Source: a bacterium | GTDB taxonomy: Bacteria; Sysuimicrobiota; Sysuimicrobiia; Sysuimicrobiales; Kaftiobacteriaceae | DNA length: 64,000 bases | Direction: 5' to 3' | Assembly: GCA_044868695.1 (NCBI GenBank) | Contig: JBIOWP010000107.1 | Coordinates: 1-64,000 of the forward strand | In this document: in pieces, positions 45,706 to 55,488 of the stretch | Numbering within the stretch: the stretch's first letter is position 1 | How the letters are laid out: each line of letters begins with the position of its first letter | Translations under genes and position numbers: made by a program | The notes under the pieces: model-generated | Seen by the model: the letters and a program-made list of their open reading frames with translations, nothing else | Told to the model about the DNA's origin: nothing | The model's database searches: none

Positions 45706-47064
45706 ATGGAGAGCGTGAAGTACCTGCTTGACGAATCGCAGATTCCCAAATCCTGGTACAACATCTGCTCGGATCTGCCCGTGCCGCTTCCGCCGGTGCT
45801 GCATCCGGGCACCAAGCAGCCGGTGGGCCCGGACGATCTCGCGCCGCTGTTCCCGATGGACCTGATCCTGCAGGAGGTCAGCACTGAGCGCGAGATCCCC
45901 ATCCCCGAGCCGGTGCGCGAGGTGTACAAGTTGTGGCGGCCCACGCCGCTGCATCGCGCACGGCGGCTCGAACGGGCGCTCGACACCCCGGCGCACATCT
46001 ACTACAAGTACGAAGGCACCAGCCCGGCCGGTAGTCATAAGCCGAACACCGCGGTCGCGCAGGCGTTCTACAACAAACAGGCGGGCGTGCGGCGGCTGAG
46101 CACGGAGACCGGAGCCGGACAGTGGGGCAGCGCGCTGGCGCTGGCCTGCCGGATGTTCGGGCTCGAGTGCACCGTGTACATGGTCAAGGTGAGCTACGAC
46201 CAGAAGCCGTACCGCAAGACCATGATGCAGACCTGGGGCGCTGAAGTCATCCCCAGCCCGAGTTCCCGTACCAACGCCGGCCGCGCCATCGCGGCCAAAG
46301 ACCCGCGCTCGCCGGGCAGCCTGGGCATCGCCATCAGCGAGGCCGTCGAGGACGCCGCGACGCACGATGACACGAAGTACTCTCTGGGCAGTGTCCTCAA
46401 CCACGTCCTCCTACACCAGACCGTCATCGGGGTGGAAGCCCGCAAGCAGATGGAGATGGCCGGCGAGTATCCCGATGTTGTCATCGGGTGCATCGGGGGC
46501 GGGAGCAACATGTCGGGGCTCACGTTCCCGTTCCTGGCCGACAAGTTCAAGGGCAAGAAAGTGCGGATCGTGGCGGTGGAGCCCGAGGCGTGCCCGTCGC
46601 TGACCCGCGGCCGGTACCTCTATGACTTTGGGGACACTGCGGCAACCACGCCACTCATCAAGATGTACACGCTCGGCCACAGTTTTGTGCCGCCGGCGAT
46701 CCACGCGGGTGGGCTGCGCTACCACGGCGATGCGCCCCTCGCCTGCCTGCTGTATCATCACAAGTACATCGAGGCCGCCGCCTACTCGCAGCGGTCCGTC
46801 TTTGAAGCCGCGGTGCAGTTCGCGCAGACCGAGGGGATCATTCCGGCGCCGGAATCCGCGCACGCGATCCGCAAGGCCGTCGATGAGGCGCTCCAGTGCA
46901 AGCGCGACGGCACGGCCCGGGTGATCCTGTTCAATCTCAGCGGACACGGGCACTTTGACCTGAAGGCCTACGAGGATTTCCTGGCCGGCAGGCTGGAGGA
47001 CTTCGTCTACCCGCAGCAGCAGGTGGAGCAGGCGATGAAGGAACTGGCGGCGATTCAGCCCTAG
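45706..47064 (+). CDS. trpB2: TrpB2 (tryptophan synthase beta type 2), stand-alone
   Basis: [53 protein letters not shown]. Confidence 0.92.
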
Positions 47065-47075
47065 CCGAATTCTTA

Positions 47076-47104
47076 TTGACGGAGGTCAAGAATTACGGTA
47101 GCCT
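47076..47104 (+). promoter_or_regulatory. sigma70 promoter with overlapping operator-like palindrome
   Basis: TTGACG-N17-TAGCCT; TTGAC-GGAG-GTCAA palindrome on the -35. Confidence 0.6.
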
Positions 47105-47145
47105 AGGGCGCGGGTTTCACTCCGCAACACCTTGGGGAGGGGCGC

Positions 47146-47976
47146 ATGGCGGCATCGTTGTTGATCACCCTGCGAGAGGGGCTCGAAGCCGCTCTCATCG
47201 TGGGGATCATTCTCGCGTATCTGGCAAAGACCGGGAACCGGGACAAGTCAAGGATGGTCTGGCTCGGCACCGGCCTCGCCGTCGTCATGAGCATCGTCGC
47301 CGGGGCCGGCATCTTCTTCAGTGCCGGTGGGCTCGCGGGCCGGGCGGAGGCGATGTTCGAGGGTACGGCGATGCTGACCGCCGCCGGGGTCCTGACCTAC
47401 ATGATCTTCTGGATGCGCCGGCAGGCGATCAACATCCGCGCCCACCTGCAGTCGCAGGTCAACATGGCGCTGGAGACTGGATCGCTCGGGGCGCTGGCGT
47501 TCCTGGCGTTCGTGGCGGTGGGGCGCGAAGGCATCGAGACGGCGCTGTTCATGTTCGCGGCCGTCCGGACCGCAACCCCGATGGCGGCCACAGTCGGTGG
47601 GCTGTTGGGTTTGTTGGCGGCGTTTGTGTTGGGATATCTCCTCTATCGAGGCACATACCGCCTCAACCTGCGCGCGTTCTTCAACGTCACCAGCATCCTG
47701 CTGCTGCTGTTCGCGGCGGGTCTGCTGGCCCACGGCACCCATGAGTTCCACGAGGCGGCTGTCATTCCGCCGATCATCGAGCACGTGTGGGACACGAACT
47801 CGGTACTCCACGAAGCCTCACCGCTCGGGAGCCTGCTGAAGGCCGTCTTCGGCTACAACGGCAACCCCTCGCTGGTGGAGGTTCTGGTCTACGCGGCCTA
47901 CCTGGTCCTCGTCGGCTGGGCATACTTCCGGCCGCCCACCCCAAAGGAGCTGGCTCCGGAACGCGCGAAAGCCTGA
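47146..47976 (+). CDS. FTR1/EfeU family iron permease
   Basis: two RExxE motifs (REGLE, REGIE), multi-TM. Confidence 0.9.
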   Translation: MAASLLITLREGLEAALIVGIILAYLAKTGNRDKSRMVWLGTGLAVVMSIVAGAGIFFSAGGLAGRAEAMFEGTAMLTAAGVLTYMIFWMRRQAINIRAHLQSQVNMALETGSLGALAFLAFVAVGREGIETALFMFAAVRTATPMAATVGGLLGLLAAFVLGYLLYRGTYRLNLRAFFNVTSILLLLFAAGLLAHGTHEFHEAAVIPPIIEHVWDTNSVLHEASPLGSLLKAVFGYNGNPSLVEVLVYAAYLVLVGWAYFRPPTPKELAPERAKA

Positions 47977-47982
47977 CACGGC

Positions 47983-48273
47983 ATGCGTACAGCTCACGGA
48001 CTGGACTTGAGGTCGCTCGCGCTCAGCCTCGTCGCCTCCTGGTGATGACTGGTCGCCCCCGTGGTGAGCCTCCTCGGGTTAGGAGGCGCGACGCTGCAGG
48101 TTTTCTTTGAGTCGGCCAGGCCGTATCTGCTGGTCCTGACCGGATTCTCGCTGGCCTATTCGTTCTACCTCGTGTATCGCCGGCCGTTTCGCCCCCGACC
48201 CGCCGTCGCGCGACTGTGGATCACGACTGTAGTATCCGTCATCCTCGTGTCCATTCCGTTCTTCCGGGACTGA
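47983..48273 (+). CDS. MerT-like membrane protein with tandem in-frame TGA-TGA (putative Sec-Sec)
   Basis: MRTAHGLDLRSLALSLVASW**LVAPVVSLLGLGGATLQVFFESARPYLLVLTGFSLAYSFYLVYRRP...; the two TGAs (48043-48048) sit at the MerT ASxCC position. Confidence 0.7.
48052..48092 (+). promoter_or_regulatory. bacterial SECIS-like hairpin
   Basis: stem GCCTCCT/AGGAGGC (48068-48087), loop CGGGTT; possible lower stem GTCGC/GCGAC; loop 26-29 nt after the TGAs. Confidence 0.6.
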
Positions 48274-48350
48274 CCCGCGGTCCACCCCTTCACAGTTTTC
48301 GCGGTTTCCACCAATGGCGTAAGACGAGCCTGACATAGGAGAGTACTGCC

Positions 48351-48407
48351 AAAGAAGGAGGGGACTGTCCCCTCCTTGCAATAGCCCATATTGGTCATTG
48401 ATGGGTG
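48351..48407. repeat. 57-bp dispersed repeat, copy 2
   Basis: 48/57 identical to 34699-34755. Confidence 0.8.
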
Positions 48408-48424
48408 ATTTGTTTGGGTCATCT

Positions 48425-49251
48425 GTGACGACTGAAGAGATCATGTCGCTCGCGCTGGAGATGTCCGGGTTTCTCCGGATTCCGGAGGATTCCGCCATTT
48501 TCGTCCCAGGCAAGGGCATCCAGAAGGTGCTCTTCGGTGTGGACGTCGGGGCGGCGGAGCTGCAGATGGCGAAAGCGCTGGGTGTCGACCTGGTGATCGC
48601 CCACCACCCGCCCGCCACGGGCACCGACACCTGGAAGATCTTCCTGCGGCACGTCGAGTTTATGACCGCTGCCGGGGTGCCCGAGGACGCGGCGCTGGCG
48701 GCCGTGGCGGAGAAAATCGAAGGGCTGAAGCTTCGCGGGCAGGTCGCCAACTACGACCACGTGCCCTCGGCCGCGAAATTGATTGGCATCCCGTTCATGA
48801 ACATCCACGCGCCGCTCGATGAACTGGGCCGGCGGCGCCTGCGCGAGCAGGTGGACGGCGTGCTGGCCCGGGGCCGGGCCACGGCCGGAGATCTGGTGGA
48901 CGCGCTCGCCGCGCTTCCCGAGATGCGCGCCGCGCCGACCACCGTCCAGGCGGTCCTCGGCGACGCGGCCGACCCCGTGCGCCGCGTCGTCGTGGGCCAC
49001 GGCGCCTATACGAACGGCGGCTATCCGGTCGCCCGGGCGTGCTTCGCGCACGGGGTAGACGCCGTCGTGTACATACACATCGACTTCGCGGAACTCCAGC
49101 ACCTCCGGGCCGAGCGCCGCGGTAACCTCATCGTTGCGGCCATCTGGCCGGCGATTCGCTGGGTTTTACCCCCTTTCTTCGCGAGCTCCGGAAGCGCGGA
49201 CTGGACGTGATGACCTTCAGCGGCGTGATTGAACCAGTCCCCAGTCCCTAG
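48425..49251 (+). pseudogene. NIF3/DUF34-like metal-binding protein with a 1-nt frameshift near 49138
   Basis: GVDV, IAHHP, MNIHAPLD; after GNLIVA the -1 frame continues GHLAGDSLGFTPFLRELRKRGLDV..* (stop 49249-49251). Confidence 0.65.
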
Positions 49252-50031: not shown

Positions 50032-51177
50032 ATGAGCCGCCGGCGGTTCGAGACCCGCGCGATCCATGAGGGGCAGCCGCCGGATCCCGCGACCGGCGCG
50101 GTCATGACGCCGATCTATCAGACCGCGACATACGCGCAGTCCGAGCCCGCGGTCCACAAGGGATACGACTACAGCCGCACCGCGAATCCGACCCGCACCG
50201 CGCTGGAAACATGCCTGGCGTCGCTGGAAGAGGGGGCGCACGGGCTCGCGTTTGCCTCGGGGATGGCGGCGATCACCACAGCGTCATATCTGCTCAACCC
50301 CGGCGACCGGGTGCTGGCCCCGGACGACGTGTACGGCGGAACCTACCGGTTGTTCGTCCGCGTCCTCCAGCGCTACGGCATCGCGCCGTCGTTCGTGGAC
50401 ATGACCGACCTGACGCGGGTCGAGGCGGCGCTGGGCACCCACCCGCGCCTGGTGCTGGTCGAGACGCCGACCAACCCGTACCTCAAGATCCTCGACATTG
50501 CGCGCATCGCCGAGCTCGCGCATACCCACGACGCGCTCGTGCTCGTGGACAATACGTTTGCGTCTCCCTATTTCCAGCGGCCGCTGACCCTGAGTGCGGA
50601 TATCGTCGTCCACTCGACAACCAAGTACCTGGGCGGGCACAGCGACGTGATCGGCGGCGCCGCGGTGACCAACAGCAGGGAGATCGCTGAAACGCTGCGG
50701 TTCCACCAGAATGCCGCCGGCGCGGTGCCGGGACCGTTCGACTCCTGGCTCGTCCTGCGCGGGATCAAGACGCTGGCGGTGCGGATGGAACGCCACGCCG
50801 CCAACGCGATGCAGGTGGCGCAGTTCCTAAACGGCCATCCCGCCGTGGCCCGGACGTTCTACCCCGGTCTCCCCGGCCACCCCGGCTACGACCTCGCCCG
50901 GCGGCAGATGACGGGATTCGGCGGGATGGTGTCGTTCGTTCTGAAGGGGGGAGGCCGCGCGGCCAGGGCCGTGGCTTCCTCGACGCGGGTCTTCCTCCTG
51001 GCGGAGAGCCTGGGCGGCGTGGAATCGCTTCTCGACCATCCGGCCAGCATGACGCACGCCTCGCTCGCCGGCTCCCCGATGCAGGTTGACGAAGGGCTGA
51101 TCCGCCTCTCGGTGGGGATTGAGCACATCGACGACCTCATTGACGATTTGAAGCAGGCGCTCGACAACGCGAGATGA
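50032..51177 (+). CDS. cystathionine gamma-lyase/synthase (Cys/Met metabolism PLP enzyme)
   Basis: YDYSRTANPTR, FASGMAAI, ETPTNP, HSTTKYLGGHSD, AESLGGVESL. Confidence 0.92.
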   Translation: MSRRRFETRAIHEGQPPDPATGAVMTPIYQTATYAQSEPAVHKGYDYSRTANPTRTALETCLASLEEGAHGLAFASGMAAITTASYLLNPGDRVLAPDDVYGGTYRLFVRVLQRYGIAPSFVDMTDLTRVEAALGTHPRLVLVETPTNPYLKILDIARIAELAHTHDALVLVDNTFASPYFQRPLTLSADIVVHSTTKYLGGHSDVIGGAAVTNSREIAETLRFHQNAAGAVPGPFDSWLVLRGIKTLAVRMERHAANAMQVAQFLNGHPAVARTFYPGLPGHPGYDLARRQMTGFGGMVSFVLKGGGRAARAVASSTRVFLLAESLGGVESLLDHPASMTHASLAGSPMQVDEGLIRLSVGIEHIDDLIDDLKQALDNAR

Positions 51178-51449
51178 CGACCGTCTACGTCCCAACTCCG
51201 CTCCGCCGCACGACGGGCGGCCAGGGCAAGGTCCAGCTTGCCGGCCGCACCGTGCGGGAGTTGCTTGACGCGCTGGAGCGCCGCCATCCCGGCATCCGGC
51301 AGCAGGTGTTCGATGAGCGCGGCGAGGTACGCAGCTTCATCAATGTCTTCGTCAACGGCACCGAGATCCGGCAACTGCAGGGGCTGGCGACGCCCGTGAA
51401 AGAGACGGACGAGGTGTCGATCATCCCCGCGATGGCGGGCGGGTTGTGA
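51174..51449 (+). CDS. cysO: CysO/MoaD-like ubiquitin-fold sulfur carrier, ending ...AGG-L
   Basis: VPTPLR..TGG, TVRELL, FINVFVNG..IR, IIPAMAGGL*; context with cysM and mec. Confidence 0.8.
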   Translation: MTTVYVPTPLRRTTGGQGKVQLAGRTVRELLDALERRHPGIRQQVFDERGEVRSFINVFVNGTEIRQLQGLATPVKETDEVSIIPAMAGGL

Positions 51450-52882
51450 AGCGCACGGCGGGCAAGGTCAGGCCACGGCCCCGCCGCGCGGCGCCAACCG
51501 CCGCCAGGGACGAAATCTTCGACAGTGTCCTCGATGTGGTCGGCAAGACCTCGCTCGTGCGCCTGCACAAGGTCACCCGCGGCCTGCGCGCCGATGTCGT
51601 GGCGAAGCTCGAGTACCTCAATCCCGGCGGTTCGGTCAAAGACCGGATCGGCCCGACGATCCTCGATGATGCGGAGCAGCGCGGGCTACTGCGGCCCGGC
51701 GGAACGATCGTGGAAGCCACCTCCGGGAATACCGGCGTCGGCCTGGCCATCGCCGCGGCGGTCCGCGGGTACCGGACCATCTTCGTCATGCCGGACAAGA
51801 TGTCGGAGGAGAAGATCCGGCTGCTGCGCGCGTTCGGCGCCCGCGTCGTCATTACGCCGACCGCGGTGGCGCCCGACGATCCACGAAGCTACTACAGCGT
51901 GAGCCGGCGCATCGCCGAGGAGACCCCGAACAGCTTCTACGCCAACCAGTACGCCAATCCGGCGAACCCGCAGGCGCACTATCGCACGACCGGTCCGGAG
52001 ATCTGGCGCCAGACCGGCGGCCGGCTCGACCTCTTCATTGCCACGATGGGGACCGGCGGGACAATTTCCGGCGCCGGCAAGTTTCTCAAGGAGCGGCGCT
52101 CGGCGCTGCGCGTCATCGGGGTCGATCCGCTGGGGTCGGTCTTTTACGAATACTTCAAGACCGGAAAGCTCCCCGAGCCGCGGACATATAAGGTGGAGGG
52201 GATCGGTGAAGACTTTCTCCCCGAGACGATGGATTTCTCCGTCGTGGACGAGGTCGTGCAGATCTCCGACCGCGAGGCGTTCATGATGACGCGGCGGCTG
52301 GTGCGCGAAGAAGGACTGTTCTGCGGCGGCAGCAGCGGCGCGGCGGTGGCGGGCGCGATCAAGTATCTGCGCACTCTGCCCGACGGCGGCGCGGGCCTGC
52401 GGGCGGTCGTGGTGCTCCCCGATTCCGGATCGCGCTACCTCTCCAAGATCTTCTCCGACGACTGGATGCGGGAGCATGGATTCTTGGAGATCGAACTAGG
52501 CACCGTCGGGGAGCTGGTGCAGACCAAGTCCATCCCGCTGGTGTCGGCCAGCCGCACCGATGCGGTCAGCGACGTCGTCGCCAAGATGAAGCAGTACGAC
52601 GTGTCGCAGCTGCCGGTGCTGGAAGACGAGCGCCTGGTCGGTATGATCAGCGAAGTGGACCTGCTCACGCACCTGCTGGATGGCTCTCACCGCCCCTCGG
52701 ATCCAATCCAGCCCATCATTGATCCCGCGCCCCCGGTGGTGGCCCCCGACAGCCCGATCGACGTCCTGGCCGACGTCTTCCTCTCCGCCAACGCGGCGGT
52801 CGTTGTGGATCACGGCGCGGTGGTGGGGATCGTCACCAAGATCGACGTCATCGACCACCTGGCCAAACGCCTGGGCCGCTGA
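51446..52882 (+). CDS. cystathionine beta-synthase with C-terminal CBS pair
   Basis: NPGGSVKDRIG, ATSGNTG, GTGGT, YKVEGIGEDF, DSGSRYLSKIFSDDWM, CBS domains. Confidence 0.9.
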   Translation: MKRTAGKVRPRPRRAAPTAARDEIFDSVLDVVGKTSLVRLHKVTRGLRADVVAKLEYLNPGGSVKDRIGPTILDDAEQRGLLRPGGTIVEATSGNTGVGLAIAAAVRGYRTIFVMPDKMSEEKIRLLRAFGARVVITPTAVAPDDPRSYYSVSRRIAEETPNSFYANQYANPANPQAHYRTTGPEIWRQTGGRLDLFIATMGTGGTISGAGKFLKERRSALRVIGVDPLGSVFYEYFKTGKLPEPRTYKVEGIGEDFLPETMDFSVVDEVVQISDREAFMMTRRLVREEGLFCGGSSGAAVAGAIKYLRTLPDGGAGLRAVVVLPDSGSRYLSKIFSDDWMREHGFLEIELGTVGELVQTKSIPLVSASRTDAVSDVVAKMKQYDVSQLPVLEDERLVGMISEVDLLTHLLDGSHRPSDPIQPIIDPAPPVVAPDSPIDVLADVFLSANAAVVVDHGAVVGIVTKIDVIDHLAKRLGR

Positions 52883-52887
52883 CCGGG

Positions 52888-53742
52888 ATGAGAGACAACA
52901 CGCGCGCCGGCGGGGCGCTGCGGCTTTCAACCGGGCAGTCGTTGCCCGATTTGCGGATCGTCCCCCGCGCCGAGGTCCATTTGCACGAGGAGACCGATCC
53001 GGCCCGCGTGCAGCGGCTGGTCGCGCGCATGCGAGCGGACGGCATCCTGCGCAATCCGCCGATTGCCGCGCCGCTGCCGGAAGGCGGGTACGTCGTTCTC
53101 GACGGAGCCAACCGCAGCACTGCCCTGATGGCGTTTGAGGCGCCGCTGCTGCTCGTCCAGGTTGTCGACTATCATGATCCCGCGGTCAGGCTCGATGTCT
53201 GGCATCACCTGCTGACCGAGCCGGTGGACCTCGGGGCCCTGCTGCGGTCCAAGGGACTGATCTTGAAGGACATGAGTGTGTCTGAAGCGGCGCAGGCACT
53301 GGCCCAGCGCGCGATCGCATGCTACCTGCTGGGTCCTGCCGGAGCCCGGTCAGTGGCCGCCGCACCGGCCCAGCCGTCCGCGGCGGTTCTCTCGGCGGTT
53401 GTGGACGCCTACAAGGCGACAACCCGCATTTACCGCGTGATGGACACAGACTTGGATACGCTCGCCCGCGCGTATGGGTCCGTCTCGGCGGTGGTGGTCT
53501 TCCCGACCTTCACCAAACGCGACATTCTTGAGATTGCGCGGTCGCCAGTCAAGCTGCCCGCCGGCATTACGCGGCATCTCATCCCCGGGCGCGCGCTGCG
53601 CGTGAATCTGCCGCTCGAGGTCCTGACCTCGCCGGGCGACGCCGAGCAAAAGAACCGCTGGCTGGTCGAGGAGATTCACCAGCGGCTGCTCGAGAACCGC
53701 GTCCGGTACTACCCGGAAGACTCCTTCCTGTTTGATGAGTGA
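52888..53742 (+). CDS. SbnI/SerK-like free L-serine kinase (ParB/Srx fold)
   Basis: VHLHEET..R, LRNPP, YVVLDGANR, WHH, LPAGITRHLIPGRALRVNLPL, RYYPEDSFLFDE parallel recalled S. aureus SbnI motifs along the whole length. Confidence 0.75.
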   Translation: MRDNTRAGGALRLSTGQSLPDLRIVPRAEVHLHEETDPARVQRLVARMRADGILRNPPIAAPLPEGGYVVLDGANRSTALMAFEAPLLLVQVVDYHDPAVRLDVWHHLLTEPVDLGALLRSKGLILKDMSVSEAAQALAQRAIACYLLGPAGARSVAAAPAQPSAAVLSAVVDAYKATTRIYRVMDTDLDTLARAYGSVSAVVVFPTFTKRDILEIARSPVKLPAGITRHLIPGRALRVNLPLEVLTSPGDAEQKNRWLVEEIHQRLLENRVRYYPEDSFLFDE

Positions 53743-54631
53743 GCTGCTCAACGCCATCGGCAATACGCCGCTGCTGCGCCTAACCCGCGTCACGCGGGAT
53801 CTGCCGCTGGCGGTTGAAGTGCACGTCAAAGCCGAGTGGTTCAACCCCGGGGGATCGGTGAAGGACCGTCCGGTGCGCCGGATCATCCTCGACGCGGAGC
53901 GCGACGGCCGCCTGTCGCGCGACCGGACCATCCTCGATTCGTCATCCGGAAACGCCGGCATCGCCTACGCCATGATCGGAGCGGCCCGGGGCTATCGCGT
54001 GCGTCTGGTCGTGCCAGGCAACGTCAGCGAGGAACGCAAGCACATCCTGCGCGCGTACGGCGCGGAGGTGGAATACTCCGATCCGCTAGAAGGGTCGGAC
54101 GGCGCGATCGTCGTCGCCCGCCGCCTGCACGAGGAGGGCCGCGGCCAGTTCTTCTACGGCGACCAGTACAGCAATCCCAGCAATCCCCGCGCGCACTACG
54201 AGACGACCGGTCCTGAGGTGTTCGCGCAAACCGAGTCGCGCATCACCCATTTTGTGGCCGCGCTGGGCACCAGCGGGACGATCGTCGGGGCCGGGCGCCG
54301 GCTGCGGGAACTGCAGCCGGGCGTGCAGATTGTGGCGGTCGAGCCGGACACGGCCCTGCACGGCATCGAGGGATTGAAGCACATGGCCAGCGCGATCGTT
54401 CCGGGAATCTATGACCGCTCCGTCCACCACCGCACGATTCCGATGAGCACGGAGGCCGCCTACGAGATGGCCAGGCGCCTGGCGCGCGAGGAGGGGCTCC
54501 TGGTCGGCCAGTCATCCGGCGCCGCGGTGGCGGGCGCTCTGCAGGTGGCCCGTGAGCTTGAGGAGGGTGTAATCGTCGCGGTCTGCCCTGACGGCGGCGA
54601 CCGCTACTTGTCGACCGCCCTCTGGAGATAA
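53735..54631 (+). CDS. cysM: CysM-type cysteine synthase (likely O-phosphoserine sulfhydrylase)
   Basis: IGNTPL, NPGGSVKDRP, SSGNAG, QYSNPSN..AHY.TTGPE, LGTSGT, DGGDRYLST; adjacent to mec. Confidence 0.8.
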   Translation: MSELLNAIGNTPLLRLTRVTRDLPLAVEVHVKAEWFNPGGSVKDRPVRRIILDAERDGRLSRDRTILDSSSGNAGIAYAMIGAARGYRVRLVVPGNVSEERKHILRAYGAEVEYSDPLEGSDGAIVVARRLHEEGRGQFFYGDQYSNPSNPRAHYETTGPEVFAQTESRITHFVAALGTSGTIVGAGRRLRELQPGVQIVAVEPDTALHGIEGLKHMASAIVPGIYDRSVHHRTIPMSTEAAYEMARRLAREEGLLVGQSSGAAVAGALQVARELEEGVIVAVCPDGGDRYLSTALWR

Positions 54632-54667
54632 AATCGAGCGTTTTCTGTCGTATAATGGGGGACAACG

Positions 54668-55066
54668 GTGCTGGAACTGAGTCGGGACCAGGCTGCGGCG
54701 CTTGTTGCGCACGCCAACGAGGAGTTTCCCAACGAGTGCTGCGGTCTGCTGGCCGGGCGCAACGGCCGGGTGGAGCGGGTCTACCGGGGCACTAACGTCG
54801 ATTACAGCCCCTATACGTACCTGATGGATCCCAAAGAGCAACTGGCCGCGTTCAAGGACATGGAAGCGGCCGGGCTGGACCTGGTAGGGATCTATCACTC
54901 GCACACCCACACGGCTGCGTACCCGTCCAAGACCGACGTGGCGAAGGCGTTCTACCCAGATGTACTCTACATGATCGTATCGCTGGCGAGGCGGGAGACT
55001 CCAGAGATCCGGGCATTCCGGTTCTTGGACGCAGAGATCGTCGAAGAGGACGTGATCATTCGATGA
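54668..55066 (+). CDS. mec: JAB/MPN+ (Mov34) metallopeptidase, Mec-like
   Basis: PNECCGLL, IYHSHTHTAAYPSKTD (JAMM HSH-x7-S-x2-D); TATAAT at 54651-54656. Confidence 0.85.
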   Translation: MLELSRDQAAALVAHANEEFPNECCGLLAGRNGRVERVYRGTNVDYSPYTYLMDPKEQLAAFKDMEAAGLDLVGIYHSHTHTAAYPSKTDVAKAFYPDVLYMIVSLARRETPEIRAFRFLDAEIVEEDVIIR

Positions 55067-55488
55067 AAGTGTCCACCCGCGCGGAGTACGGACTGCGGGC
55101 GTTGATCGACCTCGCCAGCCACTACGGCGAAGGTCCGGTGCAGACGCATCAGATTGCGGCCCGCCAGGGGCTGCCGGAACCCTACCTCAATCAGCTGATG
55201 AGTTCCCTCCGGCGCGCAGGCCTGGTGGCCAGCAAGCGCGGACCCGCGGGCGGGCACGTGCTGGCGCGCGCCCCCGAGGCCATCACCCTCCGCGAGGCCT
55301 TCGACGTCCTGGAGGGGTCGACGGCGCCGTGGTGGTGCGTCGAGTCCGATGATCCCGACTGCGTGTATGCCCACGGCTGCGGGCTGCGGCCGGTGTGGCA
55401 GGCGATCAACCAGGCGGTGGAGCGCGTCCTGGGCGAGATGTCGCTCGCGGATATCTCACGCGTGAGGCAGCCTGCCGGACGCACCTGA
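55063..55488 (+). CDS. Rrf2 family regulator (IscR-like, 3 Cys)
   Basis: STRAEYGLRALIDLA, YLNQLM..LRRAGLV.SKRGPAGG, C-x7-C-x5-C. Confidence 0.9.
   Translation: MKVSTRAEYGLRALIDLASHYGEGPVQTHQIAARQGLPEPYLNQLMSSLRRAGLVASKRGPAGGHVLARAPEAITLREAFDVLEGSTAPWWCVESDDPDCVYAHGCGLRPVWQAINQAVERVLGEMSLADISRVRQPAGRT

Follow-up and report, generated by a model that had tools for sequence, protein, structure and literature searches.

Two consecutive in-frame UGA codons in a bacterial MerT-like membrane protein gene suggest a Sec-Sec selenoprotein

The window, a stretch of 64,000 nucleotides from the genome of an uncultured soil bacterium, contains a small gene for a MerT-like membrane protein (47983..48273, + strand) behind the gene for an EfeU/FTR1 iron permease (47146..47976, +), which scores over the NF041756 cut-off and is likely co-transcribed with it. 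The permease gene stops at TGA 47974-47976, the ATG of the small gene follows six bases after it at 47983, and the terminal stop is TGA 48271-73. Two consecutive TGA codons (48043..48048, +), TGA 48043-45 and TGA 48046-48, are both in frame with this ATG and fall at the Cys-Cys column of MerT-like proteins; with TGATGA read through, the gene has 96 codons and the pair takes positions U21-U22 (referred to below as the UU gene). The list of open reading frames gives solely the part from 48061 to 48273 (70 aa), and 22 of the 24 first database matches are the C-terminal piece as annotated by gene callers. An earlier sequence-only reading of this DNA had described the frame, the position of TGATGA, and the coordinates and spacings of a downstream hairpin, all of which proved accurate. 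The Trp that it placed before the pair is present in the window, but this residue is Gly in 12 of the 13 distinct alleles discussed below.

Upstream of the permease gene, a promoter-like TTGACG-N17-TAGCCT (47076..47104, +) keeps its hexamers and spacing in four of the five relatives examined, and was not reported by a consensus promoter scan. An inverted repeat TTGAC ... GTCAA with AATTCTT/AAGAATT flanks (47068-47096) overlaps the -35-like hexamer 5' of FTR1 and is not kept in the relatives examined. Downstream of the UU gene lies a NIF3/DUF34-like gene (48398..49210, +), which directly follows FTR1 in relatives without the UU gene; its C-terminus (...SADWT) differs from that of the relatives, as if a base were missing near 49140. 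Further along the window, a sulfur cluster (50032-55488) includes genes for a Cys/Met PLP enzyme, a ThiS-like carrier, CBS-domain and plain cysteine synthases, a JAB-domain protease and an Rrf2 regulator, in an order conserved in relatives.

At the pair (48043-48048), contigs from four additional soil runs, which belong to two studies, agree with the window and no other letter is listed; the proposed look at the read letters thus gave neither TGC nor TGT in these contigs. Comparison of run X5 with the window sequence reveals three differences inside the gene, all of them synonymous. As TGA is the commonest stop in the genome, ending 849 of the 1,728 long ORFs, a reassigned code is not the explanation for the two codons. 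Among these 849 TGA-ended ORFs, 17 end in TGATGA.

The best HMM match of the read-through product is NF033560 (E 1.1e-9, residues 14-87), at 38.6 bits against a cut-off of 130, and the MerT cut-offs of PF02411 (10.2 versus 32.9 bits) and NF010314 (16.6 versus 150) are not reached. In the alignment, UU coincides with CC within the first hydrophobic stretch. The product can be called MerT-like in its predicted vicinal pair in the first helix, while by score it is not a member of the family. In MerT, the TM1 pair Cys24, Cys25 is the site required for Hg transport (PMC5715351). Helices at residues 6-38, 46-66 and 72-95 are predicted in a low-confidence AlphaFold model (the models are poor, with pTM 0.30 and 0.32), and the middle stretch is weakly hydrophobic. 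A Foldseek search returned no match at E 0.001, and a search by sequence found no solved relative. In agreement with the sequence-only reading, the second, cytoplasmic Cys pair is missing: the loop that would hold it is absent, the 96-aa product has no Cys besides the U21-U22 positions, and its one His is near the N-terminus. Because P0058, which has the TM1 pair alone, passes the NF033560 cut-off, the missing second pair is no argument against a MerT-like function.

Behind the two codons lies a SECIS-like upper stem-loop (48068..48087, +) of 7 bp with a 6-nt loop and G at loop position 2, consisting of GCCTCCT (48068-74), the loop CGGGTT (48075-80) and AGGAGGC (48081-87). Counted from the first and the second UGA, respectively, the loop lies 29 and 26 nt away and the 7-bp stem begins 22 and 19 nt downstream; the centroid energy is -12.6 kcal/mol. 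A published model of bacterial SECIS elements describes a 3-9 nt loop, a 4-16 bp stem, G in loop position 1-2, a distance of 16-37 nt from the UGA and an energy of at most -7.5 kcal/mol (PMC13188914), and the window hairpin agrees with it on each of these points, at both spacings. Taken alone, the hairpin is unremarkable. Its folding energy does not differ significantly from that of shuffles (z-scores -0.8 to +0.7), and in this genome of 67% GC such a stem occurs downstream of 754 of 64,160 TGAs (1.2%) and of 19 of 1,626 TGATGAs. A genome-wide hairpin scan without a coding filter gave 4,843 matches and was uninformative, and Rfam has no match within 46900-48500.

It is conservation, not the hairpin by itself, that raises the candidate above chance. 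Among the 13 alleles on a tree, synonymous changes in the codons of the hairpin (29-35) number 0.29 per codon compared with 1.6-1.7 elsewhere; the stem is invariant, and the sole change is T/C at one loop base. In addition, Leu33 is encoded by TTA or CTA, which make up 0.4% and 1.6% of Leu codons, and the use of such rare codons suggests that the stem is preserved. The covarying hairpin expected in homologues was not found: the upper stem is identical throughout the 13 alleles, and 150 of 500 shuffles reach the covariation score. A predicted lower stem (48061..48094, +) extends the hairpin, with one pair changed on both sides, which is not above shuffles.

The genome (95% complete) encodes selA, selB and tRNA-Sec clustered on contig C84, all over cut-off, and a selD that is also over cut-off and carries an in-frame TGA, so that all of selA/selB/selC/selD, which were to be looked for, have been found. 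The sole UCA-anticodon tRNA found is tRNA-Sec; two long 'tRNA-Trp' calls, with CCA anticodons, look spurious. Across the phylum, selA is over cut-off in 76 of 94 genomes (G033 is counted solely in this and in the FTR1 tally). In each of the other UGA-UGA carriers, which are draft assemblies, just part of the sel set was found, with no full selA in G005 and no selB in G015. In G180, a 97% complete draft, selA and selB were not found and the set consists solely of a selD with TGA, a gap that is presumably due to the assembly. G099 and G401 have selB, and G401 also has selA.

A coding-potential scan of the genome identified seven more candidate Sec genes, but did not pick up a Sec site in any formate dehydrogenase. 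The glutaredoxin-like and AhpC/TSA-like candidates have NCBIfam matches below cut-off, and there are two that we take from their motifs to be GrdB/PrdB-like, along with presumed AhpF-N-like, OsmC-like and Bcp-like genes. In-frame TGAs with hairpins, with motif-based labels, are located in the genome of the window (G000) at C52:19372(-), C142:6610(-), C96:1054(+), C63:23908(+) and C84:53135(-). Where clear, the hairpin loops of the candidates lie 18-27 nt past the UGA; for selD, either of two stems could serve, at 26-27 or at 31-33 nt. The spacing of 29 nt in the UU gene exceeds that of most other candidate Sec genes of the genome (18 to 27 nt).

Genome and metagenome scans revealed TGATGA in frame in all 20 close loci. 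The 20 full-length copies represent 13 distinct alleles, which are kin and derive from ~7 lineages, with 71-76% nucleotide identity to the window; L017 and L018 were dropped as chance matches, and L033, which ends at a contig end, was excluded from the codon counts. Of the 94 phylum genomes, 6 carry the gene, always with two TGAs; these carriers belong to 3 genera and 2 families. G077 (same contig as L016) is among both the six carriers and the 13 alleles, and its secG context is duplicated by G078. Neither TGA has changed in the 13 alleles, and the terminal stop is TGA in eight and TAG in five. On the tree, codons 5-20 have 26 synonymous versus 11 replacement changes, which shows purifying selection on the codons upstream of the pair, and 94 synonymous versus 74 replacement changes are counted downstream. 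Selection on both sides of the pair points to an intact, conserved gene and not a pseudogene. None of the findings that the sequence-only reading had named as refuting it (a lineage without Sec machinery, TGC or TGT in the reads, relatives without conservation upstream of the TGAs or in the hairpin, other lesions) came true.

Outside this group, the pair column is occupied mainly by cysteine. Two distant MerT-like loci in the close-relative scans have TGCTGC at the pair, and CC is found at this column in P0025, L034 and L035. When cluster representatives were searched with a profile, 51 matched, for the most part MerT-like proteins carrying CC. Short matches beginning after the pair were used as queries and retrieved 90 proteins. 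Of the 70 new ones, 40 begin downstream of the CC column, 29 carry CC and one carries WW. A second WW protein sits in the cluster of a shortened one, and one shortened member is named Terriglobia. We infer that WW at this column may reflect TGA read as Trp by the gene caller; some of the proteins that start after the pair may be contig-end truncations. Among 28 further loci, CC occurs in 27 and TGC-TGA in one. The latter (L091; G099:C264:2615-2968, minus strand) is a MerT-like CU gene with a downstream hairpin, which adjoins merA-like and CopZ/MerP-like genes in a genome with selB, and its G run is about equally far from the single UGA as in the UU genes.

TGATGA also occupies the pair column in G180 and G401, two genomes of another small phylum, in a gene of 29% identity. 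Their hairpin is different, with a G run that, as in the window, starts 28 nt after the second UGA and coincides with the conserved Gly codon. Of the homologues that the sequence-only reading called for, CC, CU and UU forms have been found, with UU in two phyla, and appear to form a series at one column. In a tree computed with a quick method, there are two UU-containing clades, with SH-aLRT of 100 and 99, which fits either one or two origins. The two WW proteins belong to the second UU clade, that of G180 and G401. A third well-supported clade (P0105, P0120, P0092, P0066, P0109, P0068) consists of proteins that all begin just after the CC column. In G180 and G401 (L067/L068; G180:C78, G401:C233), a metal cluster contains the UU gene, MerF and a CC MerT-like gene; its glutaredoxin-like frame starts right after a stop at the active-site position and is likely another Sec gene.

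The genomic context of the UU gene varies. In family f1 (four genomes), it is found 6-138 nt behind FTR1. The permease itself occurs in 35 of the 94 genomes of the phylum; the UU gene is present in four of those and has no match in the other 31. G077 and G078 (genus g29) have the UU gene behind secG and no close FTR1 match, while in five relatives the NIF3-like gene directly follows FTR1 (L110 was left out of this neighbour comparison). The UU gene looks inserted between FTR1 and the NIF3-like gene, or lost elsewhere. At the same locus, L019 has a ZupT/ZIP-like gene upstream of the UU gene. In G180 and G401, the neighbours are an HMA-like protein, MerF (over cut-off in the G401 copy scanned), a glutaredoxin-like gene and the CC MerT-like gene, with an ArsR regulator in G401. 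Judging from these neighbours, metal handling would account for three of the four contexts, none of which is obligatory. An FTR1-linked role in iron or copper handling or redox support, as suggested earlier, is poorly supported by these contexts. The FTR1 match of G006 (L111; G006:C258:2373-3197) has one internal TGA.

The sequence-only reading was right that no mer operon lies in the window, which is free of mer genes altogether; elsewhere in the genome, however, contig C16 carries merA (over cut-off) and a merB-like gene. Among five carriers searched, MerA is over cut-off in the genome of the window alone. On C16 (L043; G000:C16:7666-10338), merB-like, MerR-family and merA genes stand in a row, adjoining a copper-type P-ATPase and a permease with weak SO_0444/SaoE matches; neither merT nor merP was seen in the 14 kb of C16 covered. 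Two candidate Sec genes lie near this locus, with TGA at C16:1719 and 11337. In G078, which also carries the UU gene, a divergent CC MerT-like frame (L042/L044; G078:C214) has copper-related neighbours, namely cupredoxin-like, CcdA-like, CopZ-like and frameshifted merA-like genes.

The earlier proposal that both cysteines have been replaced by selenocysteine and are served by one SECIS receives strong support from the Sec machinery, the conservation of TGATGA and of the codons upstream, the CC of the outgroups and the CU intermediate, and both UGAs are very probably decoded as selenocysteine, giving Sec-Sec. In the proposed mechanism, SelB-Sec-tRNA bound to the hairpin loop would decode the first UGA in the A site at 29 nt and, after one translocation, a second SelB-Sec-tRNA complex would load on the same loop at 26 nt. 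With the stem 22 and 19 nt downstream, it would remain outside the ribosome at both steps. The product would be a small three-helix membrane protein with the Sec-Sec pair in its first helix. A selenolate pair has a higher affinity for soft metals than a Cys pair. If Sec-Sec is made, the pair likely plays the part of Cys24-Cys25 of MerT, and the protein would capture and import ions of soft metals such as Hg, Cu, Ag or Cd. Because there is no cytoplasmic Cys pair, the metal would be handed to cytoplasmic thiols or chaperones, as must be the case in short CC-only MerT forms. At low selenium, translation would halt after 20 codons, which would restrict production of the protein to conditions of ample selenium; in the window, the gene would use the FTR1 transcript.

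It is fairly likely that one in-frame SECIS reloads SelB at two spacings, and that the genes belong to a hidden multi-phylum group of loop-less MerT-like proteins with a selenium-dependent vicinal diselenolate for mercury or copper. Such a group would include at least two well-supported clades and dozens of database clusters that start just after the pair. As the full explanation, a soft-metal-binding uptake protein with a Sec-Sec pair is favored with moderate confidence.

Two alternatives accept Sec-Sec and differ in what the protein does. One is that it serves the neighboring permease, FTR1 or the ZIP-like protein of L019, in the uptake of iron, copper or zinc, for instance as a membrane reductant or metal relay. 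The position behind FTR1 in the four f1 genomes, under one conserved promoter-like site, and the ZupT/ZIP-like gene in L019 would fit such a partnership, but most FTR1 genomes (31 of 35) have no match to the UU gene, G077 and G078 carry it behind secG, five relatives pass from FTR1 directly to the NIF3-like gene, and in the second phylum it is found with MerF; a permease helper is thus unlikely. It is likewise improbable that the protein performs no transport and instead sequesters Hg or another soft metal within the membrane as a selenolate complex, or acts as a diselenide redox centre. This would agree with the lack of an exit Cys pair or any other Cys, with the single His near the N-terminus, and with the carriers of which most have no MerA over cut-off, where Hg uptake would be harmful. 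However, short CC-only forms such as P0058 are classed as MerT, and the second-phylum and CU copies are located among transport and mer-like genes.

The remaining alternatives concern decoding. The second UGA alone might give Sec, with the first read by a near-cognate Trp or Cys tRNA or mostly terminating, as a low-yield gate. The 26-nt spacing does fit the other candidate SECIS elements of the genome better than 29 nt, and the G run of the CU form is about equally far from its single UGA. Yet the first TGA is never TGC, TGT or TGG in the 13 alleles or the second phylum, the only UCA-anticodon tRNA found is tRNA-Sec, and 29 nt falls within the published range of 16-37 nt (PMC13188914), making a single Sec quite unlikely. 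A double stop, ending a 20-residue peptide ahead of a separately started protein of 70-74 residues or an overlapping frame of 21 codons, is more doubtful still. Gene callers annotate the C-terminal piece, CTG stands directly after the pair in 13 of 13 alleles, the frame from the ATG inside TGATGA runs for 21 codons without a stop in 12 of 13, and TGATGA does end some long ORFs of the genome. On the other hand, a single MerT-like protein aligns collinearly with both pieces, the stops stand precisely where CC would be and neither is ever TAA or TAG. In 7 of the 13 alleles, no in-frame ATG, GTG or TTG occurs from the pair to codon 50, which is evidence against independent initiation of a C-terminal gene. 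The frame from the overlapping ATG was discarded, as its peptide changes wherever synonymous substitutions are possible in the main frame and its stop is lost in L019. Finally, nothing beyond the stops themselves speaks for a pseudogene or an assembly error, and the recurrence of TGATGA in four other runs, in three genera within this phylum and in a second phylum, together with purifying selection and the purely synonymous X5 differences, refutes this explanation by conservation and leaves it a negligible probability.

If the Sec-Sec reading holds, the natural UGA-UGA with one hairpin offers a short, convenient system for probing the tolerance of SelB to a shifted distance and its reloading on the same hairpin, and Sec-Sec would be a motif not yet listed in a catalogue of 119 prokaryotic selenoprotein families. 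The CC, CU and UU forms at one site would allow measurement of what selenium adds to membrane metal capture. The case also shows that gene callers cut these genes, as in 22 of the 24 first matches. The reading also has a bearing on mercury-selenium antagonism in soils and on the recombinant production of proteins with multiple Sec residues.

A number of related systems have been described. Among MerT proteins, the RC607 type (NF033560, 97 positions) shares the short loop-less build with the TM1 pair only, as in P0058, whereas the window protein has UU instead of CC and reaches 38.6 bits against 130. The Tn21/Tn501-type MerT has a second Cys pair in a cytoplasmic loop, which the window protein is without, and belongs to a mer operon with merR, merP and merA, while the window gene is surrounded by trpB2-like, FTR1, NIF3-like and lipB-like genes. 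Selenoproteins of the MerT family are already known: a 'putative mercuric transport protein' with one Sec (PF02411, C/SxxU, ABB16073.1) is listed (PMC13188914 Table 1; PMC9312934), and there is a small CU MerT group, e.g., WP_250634603.1 (bioRxiv 10.1101/2022.07.06.499078). They have in common with the window gene a MerT-like membrane protein and Sec at the metal-binding Cys position, with G099 being CU at the same column. In contrast, the window gene has UGA at both TM1 positions, encodes no cytoplasmic loop, comes from a different lineage, and has no mer genes nearby in this phylum. The MerT/CopZ fusion-like heavy metal transport selenoprotein NF045683 shares the MerT-like N-terminal domain and, by its name, selenocysteine, but the window protein has 96 aa, is without the CopZ domain, and scores 21 bits against 375.

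Sec is rare in transporters, one case being the SaoP ABC permease, in which two Sec residues are proposed as joint ligands (bioRxiv 10.1101/2022.07.06.499078). In SaoP and other bacterial proteins with two Sec residues (UxxU, UxxxxU), these are non-adjacent, unlike the UU of the window. No UU motif is listed among the 119 families of PMC13188914 Table 1, in which some rows give no motif. The main texts of BSepDB (PMC13326102) and deep-Sep (PMC12013277) make no mention, as far as those texts go, of MerT or of consecutive or adjacent Sec, and in part of its text PMC10778597 has nothing on bacterial Sec-Sec. The literature searched contains no report of bacterial Sec-Sec, although supplements could hold a UU entry. 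The first consecutive Sec residues were described in the algal PDI_e, with a GUGUU motif (PMC7539508). The algal protein shares two consecutive Sec predicted from sequence, but is eukaryotic, has a thioredoxin fold, and depends on a 3'-UTR SECIS without a fixed distance. Because a bacterial SECIS is embedded in the coding sequence and acts at a defined distance from a single UGA, it faces a different problem from the algal one when two adjacent codons have to be served. Whereas MerT-like proteins with one Sec and an algal Sec-Sec are thus known, the predicted bacterial UU appears, within the literature searched, to be new.
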